A stretch of 64,000 bases of DNA from positions 2,616 through 66,615 of the forward strand of contig CAMYCX010000001.1 of NCBI GenBank assembly GCA_947254705.1, read 5' to 3'. Positions within the stretch are counted from its first letter, which is position 1. Every line of letters starts with the position of its first letter. This DNA comes from an uncultured Veillonellaceae bacterium. Lineage in GTDB: Bacteria; Bacillota; Negativicutes; Veillonellales; Negativicoccaceae. A model generated the notes under the pieces. The model ran no database searches. It saw only the letters and a program-made list of their open reading frames with translations, and was not told where the DNA came from. The position numbers and the translations under genes were made by a program. Shown here piece after piece: positions 6,173-35,825 of the stretch.

Positions 6173-6212
6173 GCTCAAAAAAGTTCCCCATGCTTTTTTG
6201 AGCTGTTTTTAT
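6173..6212 (+). promoter_or_regulatory. terminator-like hairpin in purB leader (possible attenuator or lrgB terminator)
   Basis: Perfect 11-bp stem GCTCAAAAAAG / CTTTTTTGAGC, 9-nt loop, followed by TGTTTTTAT. Confidence 0.5.
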
Positions 6213-6277
6213 GAGCAAATTCCGTCGCATGCCGCGACGATCTGCCAGTTGGTCATGGACGCAAAGGAGTGACTCGT

Positions 6278-11799: not shown

Positions 11800-13185
11800 A
11801 TGAATTTATTATTGGCGTTACTGGTAACCGTATGGGTGGGGTATTTCATCCTGAAACGGTACAAACCGCAGACCATCTTGTTCATCGGCGGTATGGTGCT
11901 GATGTTGGCCTCGGTGCTGCTCGGATACGGGCATATCTATTCACCGGAAAAAAGTACCGGTTTCTTATTATTTGACGTATTTGAATTTATCCGCGAAACA
12001 TTGTCAAGCCGGGCGGGCAAACTCGGTCTGAACATCATGGCGGTCGCGGGCTTTGCGCGCTACATGGACCATATCGGCGCCAGCCGCGCATTGGTCAACC
12101 TGACCATTCAACCGCTGCTCAAACTGAAATCGCCGTACCTGGTGATGAGTTTCTGTTGGGCCTTGGGGATGCTGCTGGGGCTCGCCATCAACAGCGCCTC
12201 CGGTCTGGCGATGCTGCTGATGGTCACCATGTTCCCGATTTTGGTGGCACTCGGCGTCAGCCGTCTTTCGGCGACCGCCGCTATCGCAACGACACTGTGC
12301 CTCGACTGGAGTCCGAGCGATACGGGTACGATTTTTGCGGCGGAACTTGCCGGCATCGACCCTGTCATCTACTGGCATGATTACCAAGTACCGATTGCGC
12401 TTTGCGTGTTTCCGGTGGTCGGTATTTTACATTATTTCACCCAGAAATACATGGATAAACGGGACGGTCATGTCGTTCGCCCGTTGGACGATCACGACAA
12501 AATCGAAGTCAATACTGAGCATGTGTCCCTCTCCAACACCCAACCGCCGCTCATTTTCTCGATTTTACCTTTAGTTCCCTTGGCGTTGATTTTGATATTC
12601 AGCCCGTTGATGATTGAATCCATTCAGATGGATATCATCAAGGCGATGCTCATCGGTACTTCCGTCGGTATGATTGCGCAATACATCCGTACCCGCAACG
12701 CCAAAGAGGTCTGTGAAGATCTCGGCGTATTCTTTGACGGTATGGGCCGACAAATGGCGCAAGTCGTTACCTTGATTGTCGCCGGTGAAACGTTTGCCAA
12801 AGGGTTGATGGTCAGCGGAACAATTGACCAGCTGATTGCCGGTACCCATTCCGGCGGTTTCGGCGCGATCGGCCTGACGCTGACGATGACATTGATCATC
12901 GGTGTCTGCGCCGTCGTCATGGGATCGGGCAATGCGCCGTTTTTTGCCTTTGCCAATCTCGTTCCCGATATTGCCGCCAAAACCGGTATGGCGGCCGTAC
13001 TCATGGTACTGCCGATGCACTTTATCGCCAGCTCGGCGCGAGCGATTTCGCCGATTACCGCCGTTATCATCGTGTCCAGCGGTATGGCGGGTATCTCCTC
13101 GTTTGACTTGGTCAAACGTACCGCGATTCCGATGATCGGCTCCTGCCTGACCGTCGTCATCATGAACTTTGTATTGTTCCTGTAA
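11800..13185 (+). CDS. dcuC: C4-dicarboxylate transporter, DcuC family
   Basis: Strong resemblance to E. coli DcuC as recalled, including 'GSGNAPFFAFANLVP' and the C-terminal 'FDLVKRTAIPM' region. RBS GAAGGAG. Confidence 0.85.
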   Translation: MNLLLALLVTVWVGYFILKRYKPQTILFIGGMVLMLASVLLGYGHIYSPEKSTGFLLFDVFEFIRETLSSRAGKLGLNIMAVAGFARYMDHIGASRALVNLTIQPLLKLKSPYLVMSFCWALGMLLGLAINSASGLAMLLMVTMFPILVALGVSRLSATAAIATTLCLDWSPSDTGTIFAAELAGIDPVIYWHDYQVPIALCVFPVVGILHYFTQKYMDKRDGHVVRPLDDHDKIEVNTEHVSLSNTQPPLIFSILPLVPLALILIFSPLMIESIQMDIIKAMLIGTSVGMIAQYIRTRNAKEVCEDLGVFFDGMGRQMAQVVTLIVAGETFAKGLMVSGTIDQLIAGTHSGGFGAIGLTLTMTLIIGVCAVVMGSGNAPFFAFANLVPDIAAKTGMAAVLMVLPMHFIASSARAISPITAVIIVSSGMAGISSFDLVKRTAIPMIGSCLTVVIMNFVLFL

Positions 13186-13226
13186 GCGACACGATCCGTT
13201 GCATATTGCCCTAACGGAAACGCGCA

Positions 13227-13266
13227 CAAAAAGAAGCGTATACAATTGCTGTATACGCTTCTTTTA
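13227..13266. terminator. bidirectional rho-independent terminator between dcuC and the MATE gene
   Basis: Perfect 13-bp stem AGAAGCGTATACA / TGTATACGCTTCT flanked by A-run and T-run. Confidence 0.8.
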
Positions 13267-13268
13267 AT

Positions 13269-14618
13269 TCATTGTGCCGACAACTTTTTTTGTAACCATC
13301 TAAGTCGCATGTTATACAAAAATGCTGCAACAAACACACTTCCGATATTTCCAAACCAATATGCATACGGCCCCCAAGGCGTCACATATTCAAGAAAAAT
13401 TCCTCCGCCAATTCCTACGCCCCAATAGGTAATTAGCGCCACCCCCAATACAAACCGAACATCTTTGTAGCCGCGCAAAGCACCTTGAATCGGTACGCCA
13501 AAAGCATCCGCTAAATTAAAGCACATCGCCAACGGGATAAACGTGGAAATCAATGCCGCCAATCTGTCGTCTGATGTATAAATAGAAGCGACCCGGCTCA
13601 TCTCATAATAACACCACACAAAAAGAAATGCCGACACCGCAACCGTAAACAATTGTGCCAACCTTGCATACCGATATGCCTGCTGTATTTGCTTTCCGCC
13701 GAGCGAAAAACTACACAAAATCGTAGCCGCGATTCCCACTGACATCGGCAACGTATAAATTAATTCCGAAAAATTGTACGCTGCCTGATGCGCTGCAATA
13801 ATACTCGTTCCAAATTGTGTAATCAGTAATCCTACCACGGTAAAAGAACTAATTTCCAAAAAATTCGCCAACCCAATCGGTATACCAATCCGCAATTGAT
13901 CTCCACACAAACGCACGTTCACCGGATCCCATCGATGAAAGACTGCATACTCGCTAAACGGTCGTCGAGCGAACAATATACCGCTAAATATTACACAATT
14001 AAATGCATTAGAAACCGAAATTGCCAACCCTGTACCAGCGCCCCCCAGCTCCGGGAATCCGAAACGCCCGTAAATCAAACAATAGTTTAATAAAACATTT
14101 ACAACAAAACCCATGCTCATGACAACTAATGACATTTTCGTTTCACCGTGTGCATCAATAATGTTGCGAAATGTAACTGCCAAAAAAGTAGGAATGATTC
14201 CCCAACCAATGTAAAACAAAAATCTATTGGCAATTTCTTGTACCTGAGCATCCAACCCTAGTGCCTGCACAATAAACGGCAAAAGGAAAAAACAGCCGCC
14301 CATAACCAAAATGCCTATTATCCCTGCCACATATGCCGATTGCCGAATCATTTCAGGGATACCGTCTCGTCGCCCAAACCCCAACTTCTGTCCAATCAAA
14401 GGCGTAATTCCCGCAAATATCCCTGTAGCCGGCAGGAGTATCGGTAGCCATAAATTAACTCCTACCGATACTCCTGCCAAATCATATTCACTATGTTGCC
14501 CTGCCATTGCAGTGGAACAAAAGCTGCCTGCAATCATCATTACTTGTGTTAAAAAAATGGGAAACCAAATATTCCAGAACTGAATCCACATTCCCCATTT
14601 GCTGCTCATATGCCGCAT
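13269..14618 (-). CDS. MATE family efflux transporter
   Basis: 449-aa polytopic protein with NorM/MATE-like 12-TM profile. Last gene of the low-GC island operon. Confidence 0.8.
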   Translation of the reverse strand: MRHMSSKWGMWIQFWNIWFPIFLTQVMMIAGSFCSTAMAGQHSEYDLAGVSVGVNLWLPILLPATGIFAGITPLIGQKLGFGRRDGIPEMIRQSAYVAGIIGILVMGGCFFLLPFIVQALGLDAQVQEIANRFLFYIGWGIIPTFLAVTFRNIIDAHGETKMSLVVMSMGFVVNVLLNYCLIYGRFGFPELGGAGTGLAISVSNAFNCVIFSGILFARRPFSEYAVFHRWDPVNVRLCGDQLRIGIPIGLANFLEISSFTVVGLLITQFGTSIIAAHQAAYNFSELIYTLPMSVGIAATILCSFSLGGKQIQQAYRYARLAQLFTVAVSAFLFVWCYYEMSRVASIYTSDDRLAALISTFIPLAMCFNLADAFGVPIQGALRGYKDVRFVLGVALITYWGVGIGGGIFLEYVTPWGPYAYWFGNIGSVFVAAFLYNMRLRWLQKKLSAQ

Positions 14619-14637
14619 ACCAACCTCATATTCGACC

Positions 14638-15960
14638 TCAATCTATTACATGTCGCCGCAACCGATTTTTATCTACTGTTTTCAAATATAACATATATCC
14701 CAAGAAAAGCAGAAAAAATGCATCAAAAAGCGGTCGCAATCCTGCTGCATACACCGCATAGCAAGAATATAAGATTCCAAGCATCGTAAACACAGTCATT
14801 CTGTGTCTAGCAGACCATCCGACTTGCGCTTTTGCTAAAATTTTATCCAAAGACAAACAACAAATGATATACGGAAGAACATTGGTAATTACCGCTAAAT
14901 CAACAATTCGTTCAAATTGAGCAAACAAATTGGTATCTATTGTCATGAGTGCAAATCCCGATTGTATTGTCAATAAAATGATCATGCCCCAAACCGGTAC
15001 ACCATAGCGATTAAGTTTAGCAAAAACACGCGGATATGCTCCGGATTCACCGCATCCTTTGAACACCTGTGACATCGTAAATTGCCAACACAAAAGCGCT
15101 CCACAACAAGAAACGACCATCATTGTCATGATCACACGACCGATTCTACCATTAAACATCGACGAAAAAGCCAATCCGAACGGTGCATTTGAAGTCAATA
15201 ACTCAGCATTCGGAACAATTCCGGCCATAATATTTGTAGATAGAATATAAATCATAGCCACAAATAAAGTCCCCATAAATGTAGCCCTTGGCACATCTCT
15301 CTGAGGATTTTCAATGGACTCCATATTCGCTGCCGCTGATTCAAATCCCAAAAAGGTCCACAGTGTCAATACAATTGACTCGCTGGCTGCTTCAAAAACC
15401 GGTAACCGATTAGGATTCCATGCTTGGACATACAGATCAAAATCGAACCAGCACCAACCGACAACACTCATAAAAGCAACCGGTAAAATTGCTCCCCATA
15501 CCGTTACGGAACTGATTTTTCCTGTCCATCCGCTTCCAGCAAAATTAGCCATTCCGGCAATCCACAATAACGCGATCGTAGCAAATGCACCTTGCAATGG
15601 CGAAAAATTCCACTGCATCAACGTCTCAATATATCCTACTGCCGAAATAGCGATTGCCACAATACCGACAACTAATGAAATCGAGTAAGAAAAGTTTGTT
15701 AAATAATATCCTGCCAGTCCGAAACGATACGCCGCATATCCTCCCATGCCACCGCGGTGTCTGGAATACATCCCGCACTGCGCAAAAACATGCGCCAAAC
15801 ATAATGCTCCCAGTGCAGTTACCAACCATGACAAAATAGAGATTGTGCCTACTTGCGCCAACTTTGTCGGTAACATAATAATCCCTGCTCCCAACATATT
15901 CGCCGCGGTCAACATCGTTAATTGCCAAACATTCATTTTTTTTGCAGGTTTCCCAGTCAT
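14638..15960 (-). CDS. APC-family basic amino acid/polyamine antiporter (PotE/CadB-like)
   Basis: 440 aa; strong similarity throughout to E. coli PotE as recalled (GAGIIMLPTKLAQVGTISILSWLVTA..., GMGGY, AISAVGY, IVPNAEL). RBS GGGGAGGAAACA. Confidence 0.85.
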   Translation of the reverse strand: MTGKPAKKMNVWQLTMLTAANMLGAGIIMLPTKLAQVGTISILSWLVTALGALCLAHVFAQCGMYSRHRGGMGGYAAYRFGLAGYYLTNFSYSISLVVGIVAIAISAVGYIETLMQWNFSPLQGAFATIALLWIAGMANFAGSGWTGKISSVTVWGAILPVAFMSVVGWCWFDFDLYVQAWNPNRLPVFEAASESIVLTLWTFLGFESAAANMESIENPQRDVPRATFMGTLFVAMIYILSTNIMAGIVPNAELLTSNAPFGLAFSSMFNGRIGRVIMTMMVVSCCGALLCWQFTMSQVFKGCGESGAYPRVFAKLNRYGVPVWGMIILLTIQSGFALMTIDTNLFAQFERIVDLAVITNVLPYIICCLSLDKILAKAQVGWSARHRMTVFTMLGILYSCYAVYAAGLRPLFDAFFLLFLGYMLYLKTVDKNRLRRHVID

Positions 15961-16061
15961 TGTTTCCTCCCCTGTTGAGATAACCCGTTAATTATTGCAG
16001 AAAGGAAAAGAGGGACAAGGCATTTGCCTGTCCCCCACCCCTACTACAGAGAAATGCCCGA

Positions 16062-17456
16062 TCAGTACACGTCGTACTTAACCATATCCTCGTAAGTATC
16101 TTCCTTACGAATCAACTTCACTTCTCCTTCTTTCGTAATCAATACAACTCCCGTCCGAGGACGATTGTTATATACAGTTTGGCTTTCAATCGTATATGCA
16201 CCGGCGTCCAGGAATACCAGAATATCCTTCAGATTTGTTTTTTCCGGAAGCAAATATTCTTCTCCTTTAATGCCATAATGGTAATAATCTCCACCATCAC
16301 AAAGCGGACCTGCCAGTTTGAAATAATGATCATGCGACTGTCCAACCTGCGATGCATTGTAAACATAGAAGAACCAACCGTAATGTTGTGCATCCGACAA
16401 CACATTGTAACCGGCATCAATAAACTTCCAGTCCACATGACGTTCTACATTTCCGTTGACATCATAATTTGTTTTTCTCTTGTCTAAACATACTTCTGTC
16501 AACATCACCGCAGCAGAGCCGACAACTTTACGACCCGGTTCGAGACAAATTTCGATATCTTCACGCCATTTCTTTACTTCGGAAATGATTGCATCCGCAA
16601 AGTCTTGCGCAGTAATTCCCGGATACATATTGTCTTCCAAGGGATTTCCGTTTTCTTCATCATATTTATACGGAGTAGGAATACCGCCGCCGACATTGAT
16701 CAGCTCAAACTTATAATCCAATACTTTTTCCAAACGCATGGATTCTTCTACTAAAACCCGAGTTGCTTTACGGAATGGATCCGATTCCGGCACCTGATCC
16801 CCTACATGCATATGTAAACCTTTTAATTTTACATAAGGCATTTCCAAAATCCGCTTGCAAACACCTTCTGCCTGTTCCAAATCAATCCCTGATTTAGCAT
16901 GATACGCTGTCACCAGACCGGCATGCGTAGCGGAAGGCACGTTCGGTTCCACACGAACACATACGTTCGCGGTCTTTTTCAAGCGGCGCGAAATTTCATC
17001 GATCACGTCCAACTCATGTATACTGTCAACATTAATAAGATACAGCTCGTTGTCAATTGCAAATTCCAAATCTTCTGGTTTTTTAACCACACCGTTGAAA
17101 ACAATTTGATCGCCTTTGAAACCGATTTCCAAGCATTTTCTTACTTCATATAACGAGTTGGCTTCTGCGCATACGCCTGTTTTTTTGATGCTGCGCAAAA
17201 TTTCCATTACCGAACAAGCTTTTGACGCATAGAAAATCTTTGTATTCGGATACGATGCAAATGCATCCTTGATTTCCTGTAAATTCCGGTCAATTTCTTT
17301 TTCCGAATACACATACAGCGGCGTTCCGTATTGACGAGCGATGGCTTCCAAATCCGCTCCGTCAAAAAACAGCTTACCATCTTTTTCGGTAAAACGACGA
17401 TCGTTATTTACCAAATCCTTACGCAATCCGTTAAAACGTTCCAAAATTTGATCCAT
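16062..17456 (-). CDS. fold-III (alanine-racemase-fold) PLP-dependent decarboxylase, Orn/Lys/DAP decarboxylase family; possibly D-ornithine/D-lysine decarboxylase-like
   Basis: 464 aa. 'YASKAC' PLP-Lys motif, 'HMHVGDQV' (HIGSQ-like), '[17 protein letters not shown]', 'CDGGDYY' substrate-loop motif. Confidence 0.85.
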
Positions 17457-17473
17457 TATTCCCGCCTCCTTAA

Positions 17474-18586
17474 TTAGTCTTTTGAAATAAATTTTTTAAC
17501 CACACCGTTAGTCTGACATGCTGCAAGCAATCCGGTATAGTCAAGCTCAAACTCAATGTAATCTCCCAACGCATACGAGTGATCACAATCTTCGATATCT
17601 ACAATGGTGTGATCACTGGTTTGGCCAAGCACACTGATCTGATCATCACAGGGCGTACAGTTTTCAACCGGTACATCTTGACGCCCAAATGCCAATAACG
17701 CACGTTTGCGAGTTCCTCGATCCTCAAACTCTTTCTTTTGCAAAAATGCATCTACTCCCAATTCCCCTACAGGAACTGTCGGTTTGGCATTCAACTCAAT
17801 AATCTCCGCACGTAACACATACAAATCAGAGACTGCCTTATCAATCGGCTTTTTCGAATGATGGTATTGATCCAAATATTTCATATCCACATATTCGATA
17901 CCAAACTCATGCAATCCGCCAATCCGCAAATGATTCAACCCCGGATTCCAGACTCCTTTATCAATCAAATGATAGCTTGTACAGTTACCCGCAGAAAGTC
18001 GACTGATTTTTACGCCGGTTTTTTCCTGTATCCGTTGTGCCAATGCCACAAAATCATCACTATTCTTCACTGTCGGCATAACAGTCCCGTAACAGTTATA
18101 ATTTGTTCCCAAACCATACAACGTCAACGAGGGCGTCCGATCAATCAATGTCACCAAGCGACATATTTCATCTTCTTTTTCAAACCAAACGCCTTCCCGT
18201 AAATCACCCATATCCACCATCAGCAAAATTGCATGTTTTTTGTTTTGATGCGCCGCTTCTTCTGCCAGCGCTAAAATAACCTCCTCTTCTGAGTTCAAGC
18301 TGATGTCTGCATATTTCACTACATCCGGAATTTCACTCAAACAGGGACTGCGTAGTAAACATGTTGTGCAGCCGATGTCCCGAATCTTTTTCAGATTATA
18401 TACCCGAGATTCGGCAATGACCGAAATCCCGCCGTCATACACCGCCTTTGCCGTTTCAACACAACCATCAAAGACTTTATTGACCGCCATCACTTCCACG
18501 CCATGGGAAGCAAGCTCTTGTTTTTCTACTCTTGCATTATCTTCCAACTTACCCAAATCGATCACTAATTGAGGCTTATACATCAT
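17474..18586 (-). CDS. alanine-racemase-fold PLP enzyme, ornithine/lysine racemase-like (Orr/YhfX family)
   Basis: 370 aa. N-terminus '[14 protein letters not shown]...[40 protein letters not shown]' resembles ornithine racemase N-terminus (PLP-Lys in VNKVF). Overlaps upstream permease by 4 nt. Confidence 0.65.
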
Positions 18587-19998
18587 GCTTCTCCTTTCTT
18601 AGATAAAGCATTGCGCTTTTGCGCCCGTTTATATGTGTATTCAGAAATGAACAGCGCCAGGATAATACCGCCGATCATCTGTCCTAAGTACACACCGTAG
18701 TTCCCCAAATCAACTTGCGCCGGTGGAATGAAAACCAAGAACACTGCAAATGCAATTGAAGAAAATCCTAACAACGGCATCAAAATCGGCAATATCGTAC
18801 CCGGAATCTTAAACGAGCGATATACGTCCGGCTTATTCTTACGAAGCACCACATATGCGGCAAACATGAACAGATACGGAACAAAATAATCCAACGTCGT
18901 CAAAGCCGTTAATGTCCAATATGCTGCTGCCACAGATGGAGAAATAAATGTTGACAAACACAATACCGTCACGACAATCGCTTCTATTTTGATAGCATAT
19001 ACCGGAGTTTCATACTTCGGATCCAATGAACTGATTTTTTCTCCCAAAAGATTATCTTCACGGGATGCCTCTTGCAACATATAGATCGGTCCTACCAGCC
19101 ATGAATTTACCTGGCCCAACACCCCTATAAACATGCATGCCGCAATTACGGAAAGCAACCACGGTGCACCTAAGTATTCTCCGGCGGCTCCCATTGCTTG
19201 CATGATTCCGGTTACGATATTCGTTTCTTCTGCCGGATATAACGTATTAATAGCAAAGGTTCCCACCATATAAATCGAAACAATTACAATCGCCGATACT
19301 AACATTGCTCGCGGAAAATCATGTTGCGGATTTTTCGTTTGACCCGCAATCATAGCAGATACTTCCAGACCCGCAAACGCAAACATCATGCTGGACAAAA
19401 ATACTATATTATCCCATTCGGTCAGGTCAGGAATCCAGCTTTCAAAGCGTGAGTAATTCGTACTCATCGGCATTCCTGTTGCTAGCCAAATTCCGGCCAA
19501 CAACACGATGATTCCGGCAGGCAAGAACACACCGAACCAAGCGCTGACATTATTAATAATTTTTGTCCACTTCATCCCTCGCATATTCATAAATGCCAAA
19601 ATCCAGAAAATCACAATCGAAGTAATACCGATAAAACTTTGATTTTCCGACAATTCAGGAGAAATGACGAACGCAATCGCGGAAACCCCGAACTGTAGCA
19701 TTAAAGGGAAAAACAAAACGCACGAAAACAGAAAACAAATAACAATAAACCAACCGACTCGAGGCCCAAAGGCTTCTTTCACCCAAACAAAAATCCCGCC
19801 GTTCTTCGGCCACCCTGTTGCTAACTCACCGCACACCATTGCTAACGGGACAAACAGACACGCCGCCGCCAACACCCACAAAATCATAGATGATGCACCG
19901 TATACCGCAACATTAGGTATTTGGCGTAGACTCAAAATTGCAACGACATTCATTAATACAATGTCACGCAACCCGAGAAAATTTTTATTCGAACTCAT
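18583..19998 (-). CDS. APC-family amino acid antiporter (GadC-like)
   Basis: 471 aa, 12-TM; 'KEAFGPRVGWFIVICFLF' region resembles Glu:GABA antiporter family. First gene of the low-GC operon. Confidence 0.8.
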   Translation of the reverse strand: MSSNKNFLGLRDIVLMNVVAILSLRQIPNVAVYGASSMILWVLAAACLFVPLAMVCGELATGWPKNGGIFVWVKEAFGPRVGWFIVICFLFSCVLFFPLMLQFGVSAIAFVISPELSENQSFIGITSIVIFWILAFMNMRGMKWTKIINNVSAWFGVFLPAGIIVLLAGIWLATGMPMSTNYSRFESWIPDLTEWDNIVFLSSMMFAFAGLEVSAMIAGQTKNPQHDFPRAMLVSAIVIVSIYMVGTFAINTLYPAEETNIVTGIMQAMGAAGEYLGAPWLLSVIAACMFIGVLGQVNSWLVGPIYMLQEASREDNLLGEKISSLDPKYETPVYAIKIEAIVVTVLCLSTFISPSVAAAYWTLTALTTLDYFVPYLFMFAAYVVLRKNKPDVYRSFKIPGTILPILMPLLGFSSIAFAVFLVFIPPAQVDLGNYGVYLGQMIGGIILALFISEYTYKRAQKRNALSKKGEA

Positions 19999-19999
19999 G

Positions 20000-20250
20000 T
20001 CACCAACTTCCTCTCCGTCAAAACTGTAACGATATATTTTCGTTAACTATAATGACTTATACTATTGTTTACTGCCTAGGCTAAAATGATTATACTCCTC
20101 CCCGATATATAATGCAATACTTTTATCAAAAAAATTTATTAAAAAACATTTCACAAGTGATGTTATTACTATTTGTTAACAAAAATTAAAAAACGGTTAT
20201 CAAACTTAATAAAATTTACTTATTCTCATTACAAATATTATTACAATGCG
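20000..20250 (-). promoter_or_regulatory. AT-rich promoter/regulatory region upstream of the low-GC antiporter-racemase-decarboxylase operon
   Basis: About 250 nt of >75% A+T with multiple TTGACA/TATAAT-like hexamers (e.g. TTGTTAACAAAAATTAAAAAA). No ORFs. Confidence 0.5.
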
Positions 20251-20265
20251 CTCATCATCTGTAAA

Positions 20266-20308
20266 CGACAACCCCCCCTTGGCTCGGGTCATCTTTCGAG
20301 CCAAGGGA
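20266..20308. terminator. hairpin (terminator or insulator) between the Cys-Asp/polyK gene and the AT-rich region
   Basis: Perfect 11-bp stem CCCTTGGCTCG / CGAGCCAAGGG, 10-nt loop, followed by TTTTTCTTT on the plus strand. Confidence 0.55.
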
Positions 20309-20324
20309 GTTTTTCTTTACCGCC

Positions 20325-20864
20325 TTATTTTTTCTTCTTTTTCTTGTCTTTTTTTGTTTTCTTCGCTTTTTTCTTTTCTTTCTTTTTATCTTTCTTCTTC
20401 GCGTTCACCATGTCGTGATGATCGATGCAGCAATCGCAGTCGCAATCACAGTCTTCCTCACGTTCGCCATGGTGATCGTCGCAACAGTCGCAGTCGCAAT
20501 CGCAATCTTCCTCGCAGCCTTCGTCCGTTCCGTATTCGTGAAGGAACGTATCGTACGGAAGCTCTTCAATCTCGTCGTCAGCGTCCTCCGTATCTCCGTA
20601 CAATTCATCCTGCAATTCATCATACAACTGAATGATTTCATCGACCCGATCCCCCAGTTCGCGATAGCGTTCCATCCGCATGCGGATCTGTTCTTCCGCA
20701 AAAGAATACGCCCGAACCGTTTCTTCTTGTCCGTCCGTAACGGTTTCTTTTTCCGCCCGCAAATCATCGAGCATGTCCTGCCCGTCCAGAAGCTCAACAC
20801 AAACTTCATGTAACAATTCACTGATCGTCAGGCTGTACGTATCAATCGGTAACGGTTGTTTCAT
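20325..20864 (-). CDS. hypothetical acidic protein with tandem Cys-Asp/His repeats and C-terminal polylysine tail
   Basis: Strong RBS AAGGAGG 5 nt before ATG (MKQPLPID...). Helical acidic N-half, then EEDCDCDCDCCDDHHGER / EEDCDCDCDCCIDHHDMV repeats, ending KKKDKKKEKKKAKKTKKDKKKKKK. The plus-strand antisense ORF is an F/R-rich mirror and lacks an RBS. Confidence 0.5.
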   Translation of the reverse strand: MKQPLPIDTYSLTISELLHEVCVELLDGQDMLDDLRAEKETVTDGQEETVRAYSFAEEQIRMRMERYRELGDRVDEIIQLYDELQDELYGDTEDADDEIEELPYDTFLHEYGTDEGCEEDCDCDCDCCDDHHGEREEDCDCDCDCCIDHHDMVNAKKKDKKKEKKKAKKTKKDKKKKKK

Positions 20865-20934
20865 CATATCCTCCTTTTGCTCACTGCCATACTCTCTACT
20901 TAATAGTATTCTCTCTTGTACGATGATTTCCTTT

Positions 20935-20962
20935 TTTATCCTTGCGGGCAATATGCTATACT
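20935..20962 (+). promoter_or_regulatory. promoter for corC-like gene (extended -10 TGcTATACT)
   Basis: TTTATC-16-TATACT with TGC immediately upstream of the -10. Confidence 0.4.
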
Positions 20963-21003
20963 GTGTGTATTATATACTGATAAAACAAAAGAGGAGTGTG
21001 ACT

Positions 21004-22365
21004 ATGGATAGCGATCACCCCGGGTGGCAACTGATCTTATTATTTGTACTGATTTTGGCGAACGGTGTATTTTCCGCCACGGAAATTGCCGTCGTCAGTG
21101 CCAAAAAACTACGCTTGCAACGGGAAGCGGACAACGGCTCCGCCGCCGCACAGGCCGCATTGGATATTGCGCAAAACCCGAACCGTCTGTTCTCGACCAT
21201 TCAGATCGGCATTACCGCGATCGGTGTCATTACGGGGATGATCGGGGCCTCGACGCTGGCCGAACCGTTGGCCGAGCAAATTGCCCGTATCGACGGACTG
21301 ACGGCATACGCACAGGCACTCAGCTTATTGATTATTATGTCGGGGGTCACGTATTTTACTTTGATTCTCGGTGAGTTGGTACCGAAACGGATTGCCATCA
21401 ATGCGCCGGAAGCGGTAACGATGGCGGTTGCGCGACCGATGTCGCTGTTTGCCAGGATCAATACGCCGATCATCTGGTTCATGTCCGCATCGACGGGGCT
21501 GGTACTGCGGATACTCGGTATTCGGATTGTCGATGAACAGCCGGTCAGTGAAGAAGAAATTCGTTTTCTGCTGCGTCAGGGCGCACAGCTGGGAACATTT
21601 GACGCGAAAGAACCGGAGTTGATCGACCGTATTTTCCGCTTGAATGATATTCCGGCGGAAAATATCATGACCGCGCGTCCGCAACTGCTATGGCTCGACT
21701 TGGCCACGGACGAAACGGAGCTGGAGCAACTCATTATCGAAACACGTCATACCCGATTGCCGGTCGGCTATGAATCATTGGACGATTTCCGCGGTCTGGT
21801 ACGGGTACAGGATTTGCTCGTCGACCGTCTGCGATATCCGCAACGGTCATGGAACGATTTGATTCGCCGTCGCACGCAGACACCGCTCTACATTCCGGAA
21901 ACGCTGACACTGAACAAAGCGCTTGATTTATTCCGCATTCACAGTGCCCACGAAGCCATTATCCTGGATGAGTACGGCGCGCCGGAAGGCTTGATTACAC
22001 TCAACGATATTATGGAAGAAATCATCGGAACGATTCCCGCCAGTGTCCATGAGCGTCTGGCCGAACGCAACCGAATTGTGCGTCGATCCGCCGATTCGTG
22101 GTTAATTGACGGTCTGCTGCCAATTGAAGAATTCAAGCAATGTTTCCAAATTCACACCTTACTGCCGAAAGAAGGCGAGGATTATTACAAAACCCTCGGC
22201 GGGTTTGTCATCTTCCTGTGCGGCTATCTGCCGAAAGAGGCGGATACGATTACCTATGAGGACTTTACCTTTGAAGTGGTCGACACGGACAACTTCCGTA
22301 TCGACAAGGTGCTGGTTACACGAACACCGCCGCCTCCGCAAGAAACGACGGAAGAAGAGGATTGA
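21004..22365 (+). CDS. HlyC/CorC family transporter (CNNM + CBS pair + CorC_HlyC)
   Basis: N-terminal DUF21/CNNM TM domain (GVFSATEIAVVSAKKLRL), CBS region, C-terminal transporter-associated domain. RBS AGAGGAG. The ORF track's longer N-terminal extension is unlikely to be real. Confidence 0.85.
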   Translation: MDSDHPGWQLILLFVLILANGVFSATEIAVVSAKKLRLQREADNGSAAAQAALDIAQNPNRLFSTIQIGITAIGVITGMIGASTLAEPLAEQIARIDGLTAYAQALSLLIIMSGVTYFTLILGELVPKRIAINAPEAVTMAVARPMSLFARINTPIIWFMSASTGLVLRILGIRIVDEQPVSEEEIRFLLRQGAQLGTFDAKEPELIDRIFRLNDIPAENIMTARPQLLWLDLATDETELEQLIIETRHTRLPVGYESLDDFRGLVRVQDLLVDRLRYPQRSWNDLIRRRTQTPLYIPETLTLNKALDLFRIHSAHEAIILDEYGAPEGLITLNDIMEEIIGTIPASVHERLAERNRIVRRSADSWLIDGLLPIEEFKQCFQIHTLLPKEGEDYYKTLGGFVIFLCGYLPKEADTITYEDFTFEVVDTDNFRIDKVLVTRTPPPPQETTEEED

Positions 22366-22559: not shown

Positions 22560-25500
22560 TCAGTGCGAAGAATCGGGTTCTTCAGCATCATAGACCCACG
22601 CATACAGGGCAGGTAAGAATACCAGCGTCAATGCCGTAGCGACCAATAAGCCGCCGCCCAGCGCAAAGGCCATCGGCGCCCAGAAGTAAGAACGCATCAA
22701 CGGAATCATTGCGAACACCGCCGCCATCGCCGTCAGCATGATCGGACGGAAGCGCAGCAAGGTCGAATCGATCACCGCTTCCCACACCTCTTCACCTGCG
22801 GCACGGTGTTTCTCGATCTGATCCAACAAAATAATCGAATTGCGGATCAGCATGCCGCCGAGCGAAATGATTCCCAACACGGCAACAAACCCGAGCGGAT
22901 AACGTGTTATCTGCAACGCCAGTATCGCCCCGATCAACCCGAGCGGCGCGGTCATGGCCGCCAGTACCATCAAACGCAAATGTTTGAGTTGGAACATGAG
23001 CAGCGCCAAAATCACAAACACCATAATCGGCATGACTTTGGTAATCGACTCCATCGAAAGATGACTCCGCTCCGTCGTACCGTCATAAGCAAGCGCATAT
23101 CCCGGCGGAAGCGACTCACGGAACGCCCGCAACTCATTTTCATACAATCCTTCCGTGACGGAATCTCCCGGCTCTTCACCGATGGTATCCGCCTGCAAGG
23201 TAATGCACGGCTCCAAGTTGCGTCGCCATATCGTCGCATTTTCATTCACGAGCGACAATGTCGCCATCTGTCCGAGCGGGACATACCGTCCGCCGCCGAT
23301 GTGAATGGGCATCTGTTCCAATTCCGACAATCGCTGTGAACCGGTATCCGCCAAGCGAAAAACGATCGGTACCAGACGATCGCCTTCCATCGCCTGCGCC
23401 ACTTCCACGCCGGACAGCTTCGCATAGAGATCCGCCGCCACCGCGTAGTTATCAATACCGAGCCGACGGACGCTGTCCTGTTGGATATCGACCCGTACAC
23501 TCGGCATCTCCTGCGGCCAGTTCATTTCCGCCCGACTGATTTGCGGCGAAGAGCGAATGATCTCCGTTCCTTCTCTCGCCAATTTCGTCAACGTCTTGAT
23601 ATCCGGCCCCGTCAAGCGCATCATCACCGGATACGCCGCCGGCGGTCCGACCTGAATCAAGCGAATATTGGCCCGTAAATCAGGAAATTCTTCTTGTAAA
23701 ATCCGTTCCAAGTCGCGATGGACTTTCACCCGGGTCTCCGCATCCGTTGCCGTAATGACTAATTGGGCATAATTGTCTTTCGGCGGCGACGGCAGCAACG
23801 GTAAAATGAACCGCGGCGAGCTTTGGCCGACATACGAAACGATCGATGTTACCCGCGAGTCTCCGTCAAAATGCGACTCCAAGCGTTTGAGCTCCCGCTC
23901 CGTCGCTCCGATCGATGCCCCGAAAGGAAGCTCCGTTTCCACCACCAACTCCGGCCGTACCGAGGCGGGGAAAAATTCTTTTTTCAACAACGGGAAGCTG
24001 AGTACGGAAAGAATAAACACTCCCACTGTGGCCAATACGACTACGCGTCGATGCCGCAGTGTCCATTCCAACCCGGCCCGAAAACGGCGATATAACTCTT
24101 CTTGAAATGCTTGCCAGCGTCCTCGTTTCGTCGATTCTTCCGGTAAACGGATCAGACTGTATCCCAGTACGGGGCTCACCAGCACGGATACAATCCACGA
24201 CAATACCAACGCAATACAAGTCACGGAAAACAGACTGCTCGTATACTCCGATACCACCCCTGTCGACAACCCGATCGGAATAAATCCCGCCGCCGTGATC
24301 AACGTCCCCGTCAACATCGGAAAGGCGGTTTCCTCATACGCCGCGGTCGCAGCCGCGACCCGCTCATATCCGTCTTCCAGCTTACGCTGCATCATCTCAA
24401 TAACGATAATCGCATCGTCGACCAGCAACCCCAAGGCGATAATCAACGCCCCGAGCGATACGACTTGCAAGTCGATATGCTGCCATTTCATCAGGATAAA
24501 CGTTCCCGCGATCACGACCGGAATGGACAACGCCACTACCGCCCCCGATCGCACGCCGAGCGTCATAAAGCTCACCGCAAGAACGATGATAATCGCTTCA
24601 AACAGCGAACTGGTAAATTCATTAATGGACTTTTTCACCACATGCGGCTGATGGGCCACTTCTCCGATGGCCAAGCCCAACGGCAACTCGGACTGCCAAT
24701 GGGCAATACGTTCATCCAGGGCCTTGCCCAGATGCAATATATTACCCCCCGGACTCATCGATACCGCAATACCGATGGCTTCCTTGCCGTTGAAATACAT
24801 TTGGGGTTCTTTCGGTTCGCGATACCCTTCCCGCACTGTGGCGATCTCTCCCAATCGAAATGACCGCTCTCCCAAATGAACCGTCATGTTTTCTACGGCC
24901 TTGGCACCGTCAAGCAGTCCCGTCACCCGCAGTGAAATGCGATTATTTTCCGTCTGTATCGTCCCTGCCGGCATCAAGGTTCCCTGTTGCTGTAACAATT
25001 GAAACAACATTCGCGGATCAATACCGAGTGCCGCCAACTTCGCTTCATCCATTTCCACATAGACCGTCGGCTGACGGACACCGACGAGGTTTACCTTTTG
25101 TACGTCTTCGATCTGCAACAGATCACGACGAATTTGTTCCGCATAAACACGCTTTTCTTCCTCGGAATAATCATCGCCCGTAATGGCATAAATCGATCCG
25201 AAGACATCATCAAAGCGATCGTTGAAGAAGGGACCGTGTACCCCTTTCGGCAATTCCCGCCAGACGGAACCGACCAAATTTCGTACTTCCGTCCAAGTCG
25301 GTCGAATCCGGTCCTGCGGCAAATCTTCTTTCAACCAAACATAGATGACCGTCCGATCGCCGTGCGTATAGCTCTGAATCATATCGAGCCCCGGCGTGTC
25401 CTGGAGTTTCTCCTCCAATTTATCCGTCACCTGTGCGGTCATTTGATCCGCGGACGCCCCCGGCCACACCGCCGTGACGACCATCTGCCGAATCGTAAAA

Positions 25501-25625
25501 TCGGGGTCCTCCCGACGGCCCAGTTCCATAAAACTGTAAATACCGCCGATGAGTATCGCCACAACGAAGAAGTATACGATGGATCGGTATCCGACCGCCC
25601 ACCGCGCTAAATTAAACCGTTTCAT
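22560..25625 (-). CDS. efflux RND transporter permease subunit (AcrB/AcrD family)
   Basis: 1021 aa with 12-TM and two large periplasmic loops; AcrB-like N-terminus. Confidence 0.9.
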   Translation of the reverse strand: MKRFNLARWAVGYRSIVYFFVVAILIGGIYSFMELGRREDPDFTIRQMVVTAVWPGASADQMTAQVTDKLEEKLQDTPGLDMIQSYTHGDRTVIYVWLKEDLPQDRIRPTWTEVRNLVGSVWRELPKGVHGPFFNDRFDDVFGSIYAITGDDYSEEEKRVYAEQIRRDLLQIEDVQKVNLVGVRQPTVYVEMDEAKLAALGIDPRMLFQLLQQQGTLMPAGTIQTENNRISLRVTGLLDGAKAVENMTVHLGERSFRLGEIATVREGYREPKEPQMYFNGKEAIGIAVSMSPGGNILHLGKALDERIAHWQSELPLGLAIGEVAHQPHVVKKSINEFTSSLFEAIIIVLAVSFMTLGVRSGAVVALSIPVVIAGTFILMKWQHIDLQVVSLGALIIALGLLVDDAIIVIEMMQRKLEDGYERVAAATAAYEETAFPMLTGTLITAAGFIPIGLSTGVVSEYTSSLFSVTCIALVLSWIVSVLVSPVLGYSLIRLPEESTKRGRWQAFQEELYRRFRAGLEWTLRHRRVVVLATVGVFILSVLSFPLLKKEFFPASVRPELVVETELPFGASIGATERELKRLESHFDGDSRVTSIVSYVGQSSPRFILPLLPSPPKDNYAQLVITATDAETRVKVHRDLERILQEEFPDLRANIRLIQVGPPAAYPVMMRLTGPDIKTLTKLAREGTEIIRSSPQISRAEMNWPQEMPSVRVDIQQDSVRRLGIDNYAVAADLYAKLSGVEVAQAMEGDRLVPIVFRLADTGSQRLSELEQMPIHIGGGRYVPLGQMATLSLVNENATIWRRNLEPCITLQADTIGEEPGDSVTEGLYENELRAFRESLPPGYALAYDGTTERSHLSMESITKVMPIMVFVILALLMFQLKHLRLMVLAAMTAPLGLIGAILALQITRYPLGFVAVLGIISLGGMLIRNSIILLDQIEKHRAAGEEVWEAVIDSTLLRFRPIMLTAMAAVFAMIPLMRSYFWAPMAFALGGGLLVATALTLVFLPALYAWVYDAEEPDSSH

Positions 25626-26677
25626 ACCCGTACCTTGGCACCTTCATACAAATGCTGCGTTCCGGCAATGACAATGACATCTCCCTCATGCAAACCGGTA
25701 CGCACCTCTACCCGTTCACCGTGCGTGGCGCCGATCGTGATCGGTACGAGATGAACCGTATCTGCGCGCACCACCCATACGGACGGTGTCTCCGACTGCT
25801 GGGCAAGCGCCGAGATCGGCACCGTCATGACTTCGCCCTCTGCCGTCCGGAACGTCACTTTGGCCGTCATGCCGACCTCACCGTCAAACGGTGTCGCCAA
25901 TCGCAACTTGGCATCATACGTGCCCGTGGATCGGTTCGGCGCGGGCGCAATCTCACGTACCGTTGCCGTCCACGTCTGTCCGGGGCGTGACCACAGCGTA
26001 ACATCTGCCGTCTGACCGACTTCATACCGATGCAAATTCTGCTCCGTCAGTGAAATCCACACTTCCGGTTCGCTCATATCAACCACGACCGCTACCGGTG
26101 TACCCGCACCGACGACCTGCCCCACATCGACCAACGTCGCGCCGACGATACCTGCATGCTCACTTTTAAGCGTCGTCATCGACTCCTGATTCAAGGCCCG
26201 TTCATACGCGGCATTTGCCTGCCGATACTGCGCCGCCGCCAACTCCTTCGTATTGCGTGACTGGTCCAATTGCAACGCACTGATGGCATTGGCACTGTAC
26301 AATTGCGACATCCGTCCGAATGTACTTTCCGCCAAGTTCAACTGTGCCGTGGCCGCTTCCAACTGCCCGCGAGCCGCAATGACTTGCTCCGACGCATCCT
26401 TGTCGTCCAACCGGAACAAGGGCGTACCCGCCTCTACTACATCGCCCGCCTGTACATACCGAGCCACGATTTTGCCGCCGAGCGAAAACGCCAGCGGGGC
26501 TTCACTGCGCCCGTGGATCGTACCCGAAAACGTATCGACCGCATCCTCTGCTGCCCGCCCGACCGTCTCGGTTTTCACTCGCGGTATAATTTTGTCTTTC
26601 GTTTGTGTCGTGCTGCCGCAACCGACGAGTACCGTCAGGCACATCACAACCATCAACCATACTCCGAACTTTTTCAC
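25622..26677 (-). CDS. efflux RND transporter periplasmic adaptor subunit (lipoprotein)
   Basis: Lipoprotein signal MKKFGVWLMVVMCLTVLVGC. HlyD-like coiled-coil/beta-barrel profile. 4-nt overlap with the permease gene. Confidence 0.85.
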   Translation of the reverse strand: MKKFGVWLMVVMCLTVLVGCGSTTQTKDKIIPRVKTETVGRAAEDAVDTFSGTIHGRSEAPLAFSLGGKIVARYVQAGDVVEAGTPLFRLDDKDASEQVIAARGQLEAATAQLNLAESTFGRMSQLYSANAISALQLDQSRNTKELAAAQYRQANAAYERALNQESMTTLKSEHAGIVGATLVDVGQVVGAGTPVAVVVDMSEPEVWISLTEQNLHRYEVGQTADVTLWSRPGQTWTATVREIAPAPNRSTGTYDAKLRLATPFDGEVGMTAKVTFRTAEGEVMTVPISALAQQSETPSVWVVRADTVHLVPITIGATHGERVEVRTGLHEGDVIVIAGTQHLYEGAKVRV

Positions 26678-26828: not shown

Positions 26829-28295
26829 TCATTCGTCCAAATGACGATTCAGATCCACTTGTTCCAACGGAATCAATGTCGTATGATGTTTCATCTTATA
26901 CCAGAAGTATACCGCTAAAAACACCGGAATTCCGATATACGCAACACTGGCGCCATACCAGTCGATCGTTTCTCCCGTAAATGCGGAATAGTTCTGTCCG
27001 GCCATGACAAAGAGGCAGACTACCAACGCAAAGAGCGGTCCGAACGGGTACATCGAGGCCCGATACGGCAACTCGGATAAATCATGTCCTTGATACGCAA
27101 AAGCTTTGCGGAACCGATACTGACTGATGGCGATGCCGACCCATGTAATAAATCCGGCCATACCGCTGATATTGACCAGCCAGTTATACGCCACTCCGTC
27201 ACCGATTAAACTCGTGATAAATGCCGCCGCACCGAAAATAACGGTAGCAAACAACGCATTGGCCGGAACACCGCGCTTGTTGACTTTCAAGAACATCTTC
27301 GGCGCTTTACCTTCCGCCGCCAACGCATACAACATACGCGTCGATACATACAGTCCGGAGTTCCCTGCAGACAGTACCGCGGTCAAAATAACCATATTCA
27401 TCACGGTCGCCGCCGACGGCAAACCGAATCGTTCAAAGACCAAGGTAAACGGACTGATCGAGATATTTTCCACGGAACTGTTAAGTAAATTCGGATCCGT
27501 ATACGGAATCAGGAAGCCGATTACCGTAAACGCGCCCAAGTAAAACAGCAAGATCCGCCAAAAAATGGAATGAACCGCTTTCGGTACGCTCTTTTCCGGA
27601 TTTTCCGATTCGCCGGCCGCCACGCCCAGCATTTCCGTTCCTTGGAAAGAGAACCCCGCAATCATAAAGATACCGAGTATCGCACCCCAACCGCCGACAA
27701 ACGGGGCATCACCGACCGTCCAGTTAACCGTTCCCGGCGACTGACCGCCCACGCCCAAAATCAGCATCGTACCGACAAACAAAAACACCAATACCGTGAA
27801 TACCTTGATCCCCGCAAAGATAAATTCACTCTCGCCGTAGGACCGTGTCGATAAAAAGTTGAGTACAAAGATAATCGTCAGAAACAATGCACTCCATAGG
27901 ATGGACGGCGTATCGGGAAACCAGTACTTCATAATCAATGCTCCCGCCACCAACTCCGCCGCCAATGTGATGGCCCAGTTAAACCAATAGTTCCAACCGA
28001 GCGCAAACCCGAATGCGGGATCAACAAATCTGGACGCATACGTACCGAATGAGCCGGATACCGGCATGTACGTTGCCATTTCTCCCAGACCGGTCATCAA
28101 AAAATACACCATGATACCGATAAATGCATACGCCAGTAACGCGCCGCCCGGGCCGGCCTGCGATACGGTTTCACCGCCGGCGACAAACAGTCCCGTACCG
28201 ATCGTACCGCCCAATGCAATCATATTCATATGGCGTGCTTTCAGACTGCGTTTCAACTTCGGCGGTGCCGCCGTCTCCTTTTTGTTATCCTCCAT
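26829..28295 (-). CDS. amino acid permease (APC/AAT family, LysP/AroP-like)
   Basis: 488 aa; 'ARHMNMIALGGTIGTGLFVAGG' and 'FSFQGTEMLGVAAGESENPEKSVPKA' AAT-family motifs. Confidence 0.85.
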   Translation of the reverse strand: MEDNKKETAAPPKLKRSLKARHMNMIALGGTIGTGLFVAGGETVSQAGPGGALLAYAFIGIMVYFLMTGLGEMATYMPVSGSFGTYASRFVDPAFGFALGWNYWFNWAITLAAELVAGALIMKYWFPDTPSILWSALFLTIIFVLNFLSTRSYGESEFIFAGIKVFTVLVFLFVGTMLILGVGGQSPGTVNWTVGDAPFVGGWGAILGIFMIAGFSFQGTEMLGVAAGESENPEKSVPKAVHSIFWRILLFYLGAFTVIGFLIPYTDPNLLNSSVENISISPFTLVFERFGLPSAATVMNMVILTAVLSAGNSGLYVSTRMLYALAAEGKAPKMFLKVNKRGVPANALFATVIFGAAAFITSLIGDGVAYNWLVNISGMAGFITWVGIAISQYRFRKAFAYQGHDLSELPYRASMYPFGPLFALVVCLFVMAGQNYSAFTGETIDWYGASVAYIGIPVFLAVYFWYKMKHHTTLIPLEQVDLNRHLDE

Positions 28296-28528: not shown

Positions 28529-30484
<1,956 letters not shown>

Positions 30485-30593
30485 TTATACTACAAAATCA
30501 TAAAATTAACAAAATTTGCACTTTATACGCATTTTATATCAACTAATTACTTCCCAGATAACCGCGTTCATTTTTTCGCATTTTTAGGCCTAT

Positions 30594-32514: not shown

Positions 32515-32731
32515 CAGAGGCCCGGACTAACAATAAACTCCCGACATCGGGAATATCAATCCGATCTCCCGCCGTTAATTTTTTCCGAATAACGGTACAC
32601 GGTGCTCCGTTCACCCATATATCACCGTCCAAAATCAACTGTTTCGCCGCACCGCCGGAGCCGACAATTCCCTCATACTTCAGCAACTGGTCCAGTGCAA
32701 TTGTCGGTGTTGTAATCTCTACGCGTTTCAT
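32504..32731 (-). CDS. yaaA: S4-domain RNA-binding protein YaaA/RlbA
   Basis: 75-aa S4-like protein between dnaN and recF, the canonical Firmicutes position. Confidence 0.8.
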   Translation of the reverse strand: MKRVEITTPTIALDQLLKYEGIVGSGGAAKQLILDGDIWVNGAPCTVIRKKLTAGDRIDIPDVGSLLLVRASDED

Positions 32732-33837: not shown

Positions 33838-34060
33838 ATTGTCCTCCTGTAATTCGACTGAATAAAATGAAAAGCGTTTAAAAGAGCAGTAGTACTAGTA
33901 GGCTCGGTGGATATGTTGAAAACCGTGAAAGGTATTTGCCGGTGGCCGTGTGAATGGCGCGGATAACTTCGTGGATAACCGTCGTGACTTATTCACCTTT
34001 TTCACCGAAAACGGAAAAGATTACGTACAAATCCGTTTATCCACATATTATTCACTGATT
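33838..34060. promoter_or_regulatory. oriC segment between dnaA and dnaN (DnaA-box cluster plus AT-rich tract)
   Basis: Perfect TTATCCACA at 34037-34045, cGTGGATAA at 33970-33978, further 2-mismatch boxes (GGTGGATAT, GCGGATAAC), and an AT-rich stretch next to dnaA's 3' end. Confidence 0.75.
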
Positions 34061-35790: not shown

Positions 35791-35819
35791 GAAAAACCCC
35801 CTTTGTCTGACAAAGGGGG
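35787..35819 (-). terminator. rho-independent terminator of brnQ
   Basis: CCCCCTTTGTC / GACAAAGGGGG perfect stem. On the minus strand it is followed by TTTTTCTTT. Confidence 0.8.
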
Positions 35820-35825
35820 AAAGAA

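Follow-up and report, generated by a model that had tools for sequence, protein, structure and literature searches.

The window analysed here, a 64,000-nucleotide stretch of contig CAMYCX010000001.1 (GenBank assembly GCA_947254705.1) from an uncultured Veillonellaceae bacterium, carries at 13269-19998 five co-oriented minus-strand genes, identified from open reading frame (ORF) calls and their translations: permA, ornR, dokD, a PotE-like gene and a MATE gene. This island is a horizontally acquired, rearranged variant of the known operon encoding the decarboxylase DokD and the racemase OrnR, and not a new system. An earlier note on this DNA, made from the sequence alone, had held that the combination was not a described system. 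That claim does not stand: the dokD/permease/ornR/permease operon has been published for Salmonella and for 494 cluster-1 OrnR sequences (PMC13397332), NCBI holds a curated DokD model, and we recovered the dokD/permA/ornR core in more than 50 species-representative genomes. New here, and undescribed, are the permutation of the core genes, the loss of sigma-54 control and the presence of a PotE-type partner together with a MATE pump. The earlier note had the genes as they are, with coordinates that ended just before the MATE gene, and the unit is one gene longer than it proposed:

18583-19998, minus strand: permA, first gene, an APC-superfamily permease of the GadC/TyrP-like glutamate:gamma-aminobutyrate (GABA) antiporter family, 471 residues
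17474-18586, minus strand: ornR, a predicted pyridoxal phosphate (PLP)-dependent fold-III ornithine racemase orthologous to STM2358, 370-residue ORF
16062-17456, minus strand: dokD, a predicted fold-III PLP-dependent D-ornithine/D-lysine decarboxylase, 464 residues
14638-15960, minus strand: gene for a PotE-family basic amino acid/polyamine antiporter, 440 residues
13269-14618, minus strand: last gene, for a MATE-family efflux transporter (NorM-like), 449 residues

Identity of the decarboxylase and the racemase

Judged from their sequences, the two enzymes are almost certainly DokD and OrnR. The decarboxylase matched the NCBIfam DokD equivalog NF052544 over model positions 2-461 of 461 with 850.3 bits (cut-off 700, E = 2.9e-256), against 302 bits for the lysA, 48 bits for the speA and 36 bits for the nspC model, and it matched Pfam Orn_Arg_deC_N with E = 1.4e-38. 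Residues 2-464 aligned without gaps to residues 3-465 of the Salmonella enzyme DOKDC (PDB 6N2H; E = 2.6e-242, 808 bits), while the other PDB matches reached 189 bits for the best diaminopimelate (DAP) decarboxylase, 102 bits for E. coli LysA (1KNW) and about 32 bits for ornithine decarboxylases. The protein is 73% identical to DokD of S. enterica diarizonae. By these hidden Markov model (HMM) scores and PDB matches it is a DokD orthologue and not a LysA, an ornithine decarboxylase or an NspC, as the earlier note had anticipated.

The ORFs lie where that note had placed them, and the fold-III motifs it quoted are all present in the translation: YASKAC (with the PLP lysine K79), HMHVGDQ at 215-221, EPGRK at 306-310 and CDGGD at 386-390, in columns that are invariant among 17 family members, as are K79, C386 and Y429 individually. 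LysA likewise has fold III, the PLP lysine, the HxH, EPGR and CxGGD motifs and a tyrosine equivalent to Y429. The window DokD differs from it in genomic context, in length (464 residues against 420 for E. coli LysA, in line with the earlier note, the difference lying in an N-terminal extension and two internal insertions) and in the active site, where the column of E. coli LysA R307 is occupied by D355 in the window and by aspartate in the other seven DokD-family sequences aligned, down to 52% identity. In LysA, Arg307 binds the distal carboxylate of DAP. Window Tyr429 is the counterpart of Salmonella Tyr430, and active-site roles of the aspartate and the tyrosine are reported by Phillips et al. 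in 2019 and 2022. DokD is reportedly strictly D-specific and prefers D-lysine over D-ornithine (Phillips et al. in 2017). The known substrates are D-ornithine and D-lysine, with D-arginine used at about 1% (PMC13397332, PMC13294871), and the Salmonella C387A substitution, at the position of window Cys386, leaves about 1% activity (PMC13294871).

HMM scores, PDB matches and active-site residues together rule out an ordinary housekeeping pair of diaminopimelate decarboxylase LysA and alanine racemase, to which we assign a vanishingly small probability. The lysA model TIGR01048 does call the decarboxylase a LysA, its 302 bits being barely over the cut-off of 298, and many database relatives are named 'diaminopimelate decarboxylase'; these points are set against the DokD-model and DOKDC scores given above, the replacement of the distal arginine by Asp355, an alr-model score of 27 bits for the racemase (cut-off 168), the presence there of the OrnR-specific catalytic cysteine, and the location of both genes within a transporter-rich, horizontally acquired island. 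Most public relatives of the window DokD are annotated 'diaminopimelate decarboxylase' yet score as DokD, a systematic misannotation that is explained by the margin of about 4 bits with which TIGR01048 exceeds its threshold.

The racemase matched Pfam Ala_racemase_N (E = 1.6e-19) and, end to end, the Orr model NF040742 (E = 1e-106, 357 bits), under the cut-off of 480. A characterised Salmonella-type OrnR likewise fails on this model, with 353.5 bits, which means that the threshold marks off the clostridial clade and is no measure of activity. With Salmonella OrnR (STM2358), an orthologue for which an AlphaFold3 and mutagenesis study has been published, the window protein shares 72% identity. 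Its NCYGT motif is present, and the catalytic residues Lys36 and Cys164, which are K37 and C165 of the 370-residue ORF, are kept in all ten aligned sequences. These two residues form the acid-base pair, with the need for the cysteine established by C164A mutagenesis, and the family is without the catalytic tyrosine of alanine racemases (PMC13397332). The possibility raised earlier that the second enzyme might be a true alanine racemase is thereby answered in the negative.

Published cluster 1 of OrnR comprises 494 sequences, whose members are more than 75% identical (PMC13397332). The window OrnR reaches 70-73% identity with the proteins of enterobacteria, Gilliamella and Sutterella, just under this band, and its sequence fits best with a sister lineage of cluster 1. 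Its setting is the one typical of that cluster, beside the dokD gene (17-nucleotide gap) and with the conserved permease gene ahead. The Orr enzyme of C. sticklandii, which acts in oxidative ornithine fermentation, belongs to the same racemase family and has the same catalytic cysteine; in contrast to the window gene, which neighbours a decarboxylase and transporters, it is found with D-ornithine aminomutase, a dehydrogenase and a thiolase, and cluster-1 OrnR is about 40% identical to this clostridial catabolic clade (PMC13397332). OrnR is most active on ornithine and weakly active on arginine, and its activity on lysine is undetectable (PMC13397332). The lysine branch supposed in the earlier note, from L-lysine to D-lysine, is therefore not supported, since by the substrate range of its orthologue this racemase does not provide that step.

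Transporters, operon structure and candidate promoters

The earlier note had the enzymes flanked by one GadC-like and one PotE-like transporter, and HMM matches place the two proteins in these families. The permA product matched Pfam AA_permease_2 (E = 3e-64); its best NCBIfam models were two for GadC (309 and 293 bits, about 1e-90) and one for TyrP (220 bits), all under their cut-offs and by a wide margin for the 309-bit GadC match (cut-off 650) and for TyrP (cut-off 630). Its identity to the counterpart that separates dokD from ornR in Gilliamella, Salmonella, Sutterella and others is 67-69%, and most lineages with both DokD and OrnR also possess a transporter of this type.

The PotE-like protein matched the putrescine-ornithine antiporter model NF007938 with 587 bits (cut-off 409, E = 2.4e-176) and reached 528 bits on TIGR04299 (cut-off 560). 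With E. coli PotE it shares 50% identity; it keeps E207, W201, W292, Y425, C62, Y78 and Y92 and has Ala at E77, Arg at E433, Phe at Y90 and Tyr at W422. In E. coli PotE, residues E77, E207, E433, W201, W292, Y425 and C62 are reported to be needed for putrescine recognition and transport (Kashiwagi et al. in 1997 and 2000). The E77A change is common to the closest relatives of the window protein, which are encoded by stand-alone PotE genes of Veillonellaceae (56-69% identity, host-like content of guanine plus cytosine (GC)), one of them in a Negativicoccus-type genome. None of these stand-alone relatives is linked to a decarboxylase, and a PotE-family gene stands beside dokD only in the Veillonellaceae lineage of the window.

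The last protein matched Pfam MatE (E = 3.1e-54) and TIGR00797 (243 bits, cut-off 147). Its gene has a GC content of 43.6%, matching the rest of the island, and occupies the same position in a sister-species locus (L007) and in every cluster-bearing metagenome contig that extends past the PotE-like gene. To our knowledge, diamines are not established as substrates of bacterial MATE pumps. Two Sutterella loci (L045, about 15600-16840, and L048, about 6200-7400) have a MATE gene after the AAT-family permease gene; its product is 27-30% identical to the window protein, and the link between MATE gene and DokD operon in Sutterella is apparently independent of the one described here.

The non-coding features of the island are the following:

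16010-16036, minus strand: GC-rich stem-loop plus T-rich tract, a terminator-like match that separates dokD from the PotE-like gene
13229-13265, no strand assigned: palindromic hairpin, a bidirectional terminator (terminator scan and folding)
20089-20117, minus strand: candidate housekeeping-sigma promoter read from the sequence, about 90 nucleotides upstream of permA
20237-20265, minus strand: second candidate promoter, TTTACA-17-AATAAT (sequence scan)
13266-20324, no strand assigned: extent of the low-GC island, which holds the five genes and an AT-rich upstream region only

The first three genes are tightly packed. The permA stop and the ornR start overlap in ATGA, ornR likely starting at its second methionine (18583, 369 residues) and so overlapping or abutting the permA stop; a 17-nucleotide gap with an AAGGAGG ribosome-binding site then separates ornR from dokD. 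The PotE-like gene follows dokD after 101 nucleotides, with 19 nucleotides between it and the MATE gene. The hairpin at 16010-16036 in the longer gap folds at -29.3 kcal/mol (z = -4.8; none of 200 shuffled sequences folded equally well), and it is kept in L007, where both arms of the stem are lengthened in a compensatory manner. This sequence evidence suggests partial termination or processing between the ancestral core and the two genes that were added to it. With the PotE-like and MATE genes behind a conserved stem-loop, their expression may be lower or separately tuned. The second hairpin, at 13229-13265, is a perfect 16-bp palindrome between runs of A and T (-21.1 kcal/mol, z = -5.3); the MATE gene on the minus strand and the convergent dcuC on the plus strand share it as their terminator, and the island ends there on its downstream side.

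The hairpin at 16010-16036, together with a promoter-like site in the same 101-nucleotide gap, bears on whether the PotE-like and MATE genes form an independent two-gene passenger unit, for instance for diamine uptake and for drug or cation efflux. Such a unit would be compatible with either physiology considered below, and we find it doubtful, if worth entertaining. Both genes are missing from all DokD loci outside the Veillonellaceae, and between the window and L007 they are less conserved (85% and 79% identity, respectively) than the core (92-94%), as a passenger might be. They nevertheless share strand and low GC content with the core and always accompany it in 15 metagenome contigs and in the sister species. 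The PotE family also suits the substrate and product of the two enzymes, and the separate occurrence of a MATE gene in a Sutterella DokD operon likewise argues against a mere passenger.

The promoter candidate at 20089-20117 reads TTGCAT-17 nt-TATAAT, and its -10 box with the following GCCTAGGC block is the only upstream stretch that is well conserved with L007. We infer that the island is expressed from an ordinary -35/-10 promoter, with a predicted transcription start at about 20080-20083. In Salmonella, the STM2360-2356 operon depends on sigma-54, with activator STM2361 and promoter TGGCATGCCTTTTGCTTT (PMC3844500, PMC4987338). Control of this kind is ruled out for the island, as motif and activator gene are both absent: the -24/-12 motif TGGCAY-N5-TTGCW was found neither upstream of permA nor upstream of dokD, in the window or in L007, and neither the window nor L007 contains a sigma-54 activator gene. 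A search for riboswitches and leader RNAs gave no Rfam match at E <= 1 over 13000-21200, and inspection by eye revealed no convincing leader ORF.

Known relatives, origin and surroundings of the island

Our scan of species-representative genomes yielded 68 DokD loci. The recurrent order among them is a divergent sigma-54 activator gene followed by dokD, the GadC-like permease gene, ornR and an AAT-family permease gene, to which ubiX is appended in Salmonella, Citrobacter, Kluyvera and Yokenella. This activator-dokD architecture was present in about 48 loci (one metagenome contig counted in), and the strict TGGCAY-N5-TTGCW motif lies 80-90 nucleotides upstream of dokD in 45 of the 68. When neighbouring ORFs from 28 genera were clustered, the only conserved families were the activator, DokD, the GadC-like permease, OrnR and the AAT permease. 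In Gamma- and Betaproteobacteria, Clostridia and Syntrophomonadaceae alike, dokD, permA and ornR sit next to one another. The PotE-like and MATE pair is absent from every DokD locus outside the Veillonellaceae, the Sutterella MATE gene being distant.

The closest described system is that of Salmonella, STM2360-STM2356 (dokD, GadC-like permease, ornR, amino-acid permease and ubiX, with the divergent activator STM2361), which has equivalents in Gilliamella, Hafnia, Edwardsiella, Sutterella and others. The earlier note had correctly pointed to this arrangement of DokD with a racemase and a transporter. The cores are orthologous (DokD 73%, OrnR 72%, permease 67% identical), and the two operons have in common the catalytic residues, the tight linkage and a second amino-acid or amine transporter. 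They differ in order, which is permA-ornR-dokD in the window and dokD-permA-ornR in Salmonella. The window also lacks the sigma-54 promoter, the activator gene, the STM2357-type AAT permease and ubiX, and has instead the PotE-family transporter and the MATE pump, in a low-GC island of a diderm Firmicute.

Other systems resemble the island in part. E. coli speF-potE likewise couples the conversion of ornithine to putrescine with a neighbouring PotE-family transporter; SpeF is a fold-I, L-specific enzyme, whereas the window enzyme is of fold III, D-specific by analogy with its characterised orthologue and dependent on a racemase. The island moreover has no SpeFL-type leader peptide, and E77 and E433 of PotE are not conserved. 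GadB/GadC, TyrDC/TyrP and AdiA/AdiC are also pairs of a decarboxylase and an APC-family transporter with proton-consuming chemistry; compared with them, the window system needs an extra racemisation step and has no acid-response regulator, and exchange by permA is putative.

Some loci found in the scan depart from the operon pattern. DokD-like genes of 51-63% identity with neither ornR nor permA within 7 kb occur in Desulfobacter-type genomes, Aquitalea and Oxalobacteraceae (L053, L055, L056, L059-L066 and L072), and those checked for the Asp355 signature bear it. One DokD operon is immediately preceded by an arginase-family gene (L083, 6553-7218, minus strand), and in Salmonella argT, which encodes a lysine/arginine/ornithine-binding protein, lies just downstream of the operon (L034, 16364-17146, plus strand); these two neighbours hint at a link to arginine or ornithine supply.

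The host is, from its sequence, a Negativicoccus-related member of the Veillonellaceae and hence a diderm Firmicute. GyrB of the window is 94-95% identical to that of the group around the nearest metagenome-assembled genome (MAG), 79-80% to Negativicoccus and 74% to Megasphaera. That MAG is labelled uncultured Veillonellaceae; it has the same five-gene order, a DokD 94% identical to that of the window and an adjoining DcuC 96% identical. At least 15 metagenome contigs have all five genes arranged in this way.

Base composition and phylogeny indicate that the island was acquired horizontally, the argument resting on a compositional island and on the placement of DokD and OrnR in their trees. 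The island as a whole has 42% GC in a genome of roughly 55%; its five genes have a GC content of 41-44%, against 52-58% for the flanking genes (dcuC, CNNM, RND, purA and others), and the contrast in L007 is alike (44-47% against 57-61%). In trees of both enzymes, the window, L007 and a 4-kb ENA contig of 32% GC (ERZ14212814, L082) grouped with 99-100% bootstrap support, and this clade joined the proteobacterial sequences to the exclusion of the Syntrophomonadaceae and Clostridium versions with 98-100% support; the trees are neighbour-joining and were rooted arbitrarily on the most divergent sequence, so that they are only suggestive of the direction of transfer. The 4-kb contig, like L007, also has the permuted permA-ornR-dokD order, at 79-88% identity, and may represent the donor lineage. 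Acquisition probably proceeded through a low-GC intermediate. No mobile-element signatures were seen at the island borders, where we found only terminators and an AT-rich spacer.

The borders appear to have been remodelled since acquisition, because the flanks of L007 differ from those of the window. In L007 an OpuA-type glycine-betaine ABC transporter (14260-16967, minus strand; two genes at the host GC content of 61%) separates the MATE gene from dcuC, and the upstream flank is unlike that of the window. Directly upstream of the window island, a 181-residue ORF (20325-20870, minus strand) with a terminator at 20276-20307 encodes a protein that is acidic towards its N-terminus and has two (DC)n-CC-DHH repeats as well as a tail of poly-lysine. 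It had no match in Pfam or NCBIfam, varies between 161 and 181 residues among the metagenome contigs and is absent beside the L007 island; its product may bind metal.

Further upstream, a plus-strand gene at 21004-22365, divergent from the island, encodes a CNNM/CorC-type membrane protein whose best NCBIfam model is the polyamine exporter PaeA (319 bits, cut-off 500). We excluded it as a part of the system on account of its host-like GC content of 53%, its sub-cut-off score and its absence beside the L007 island, and its position next to a putrescine-producing operon is probably a coincidence. An RND efflux permease (1021 residues) and a periplasmic adaptor (351 residues) are encoded at 22560-26677 on the minus strand with no outer-membrane factor gene adjacent, and this pair fits a diderm Firmicute host. 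The sole AAT permease of the window, a LysP-like protein (26829-28295, minus strand; NF008094 707 bits, cut-off 735), is ruled out as an STM2357 equivalent by its 36% identity, host GC content and distance of 7 kb. The region 28529-43097 is the neighbourhood of a replication origin, with gyrB, a DciA-domain gene, recF, dnaN and dnaA on the minus strand and mnmE and mnmG on the plus strand. The cumulative GC skew has its minimum near 34 kb, and the island lies about 15-20 kb from the origin.

Possible physiology and significance

The mechanism we propose starts with OrnR, which by orthology to the characterised enzyme would interconvert L- and D-ornithine through its lysine/cysteine acid-base pair. 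DokD would then decarboxylate D-ornithine to putrescine and CO2, or D-lysine, if supplied, to cadaverine, with the consumption of one proton. As a member of the GadC/TyrP exchanger family that travels with both enzymes, the permA product most likely swaps external ornithine for internal putrescine. The PotE-type transporter and the MATE pump, added in this lineage only, would give extra ornithine/putrescine exchange or diamine export. In net terms, ornithine would enter, putrescine and CO2 would leave, and one cytoplasmic proton would be used per turnover; the outcome would be alkalinisation, a gain in proton-motive force, or both, for a strictly anaerobic host. Taken as a whole, an acquired and rearranged DokD/OrnR operon with exchange physiology is the best explanation of the data and, on balance, a somewhat probable one; for the exchange and proton-consuming physiology as such, our confidence stops just short of even.

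Several points weigh against this exchange cycle. The laboratory that characterised OrnR and DokD reports no sign that acid induces the system and leans towards biosynthesis as its role (PMC13397332); the acid tolerance suggested in the earlier note is likewise not supported. No acid-responsive regulator of the CadC, AdiY or GadE type is present near the island. The PotE-like protein is without two of the three glutamates (E77 and E433) reported to be essential in E. coli PotE, and stays under the stricter PotE cut-off (TIGR04299). A simple exchange cycle would hardly seem to call for two exchangers and a MATE pump, and a racemase with a D-specific decarboxylase would be an unexplained detour if decarboxylation of L-ornithine were the sole aim.

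A different use for the same products is suggested by the cell wall of the host group. In Negativicutes the D-glutamate of peptidoglycan bears covalently bound putrescine or cadaverine, and their outer-membrane tether OmpM binds the polyaminated wall. The island might thus make putrescine or cadaverine from imported ornithine or D-lysine for the envelope, with the PotE-like protein acting mainly as a diamine importer. We consider this, the main rival of the exchange reading, possible but unlikely. The host is a relative of Negativicoccus within the Veillonellaceae; in Veillonella and Selenomonas the peptidoglycan is modified with cadaverine or putrescine and is required for tethering of the outer membrane, and V. 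parvula was grown with added putrescine (PMC10628300, PMC3035260). The nearest relatives of the PotE-like protein, stand-alone in Veillonellaceae and unlinked to a decarboxylase, may be diamine importers, and the biosynthetic view held by the enzymologists (PMC13397332) agrees with a supply role. Biosynthesis would, however, require an ornithine importer and the two enzymes only, whereas permA comes from a family of exchangers and the island also encodes a MATE exporter; and Proteobacteria, which have no wall polyamination, run the core under a sigma-54 activator in the style of a catabolic operon.

The substrate preferences of the enzymes also allow a scavenging role, in which permA would import D-lysine and D-ornithine released from the walls and peptides of other bacteria, DokD would turn them into diamines and OrnR would serve mainly to salvage D-ornithine to the L-form. 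The reported preference of DokD for D-lysine, a substrate that OrnR does not make and that must therefore be external, accords with this role, as do the cooperative kinetics of OrnR in the D to L direction (PMC13397332). We nonetheless regard it as improbable, because the tight conservation of OrnR beside DokD argues for D-ornithine made in situ and PotE-family proteins are known for L-ornithine and putrescine.

Returning to the acquired and rearranged DokD/OrnR operon, the variant described here is a simpler, differently wired form that bears on the question of why ornithine is racemised before its D-form is decarboxylated. The replacement of a generic permease by a PotE-type transporter and the disappearance of sigma-54 control point to the flux from ornithine to putrescine as the selected function. 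The locus documents the spread of the DokD/OrnR module between phyla, and the wider comparison shows many proteins listed in databases as 'diaminopimelate decarboxylase' to be DokD. The Negativicute host, with an outer membrane tethered to diamine-modified peptidoglycan, makes a link between this pathway and polyamination of the wall testable.

A more far-reaching proposal, which we put forward as speculative and rather unlikely, is that the DokD/OrnR core was rewired in this Veillonellaceae lineage into a constitutive or differently regulated, sigma-54-free diamine island together with the PotE-type transporter and the MATE pump. If true, the MATE protein would serve specifically to export diamines, and the island would be the first decarboxylation-exchange system for energy or pH that runs via a D-amino-acid intermediate or, alternatively, an acquired source of putrescine or cadaverine for the outer-membrane tether of a diderm Firmicute.

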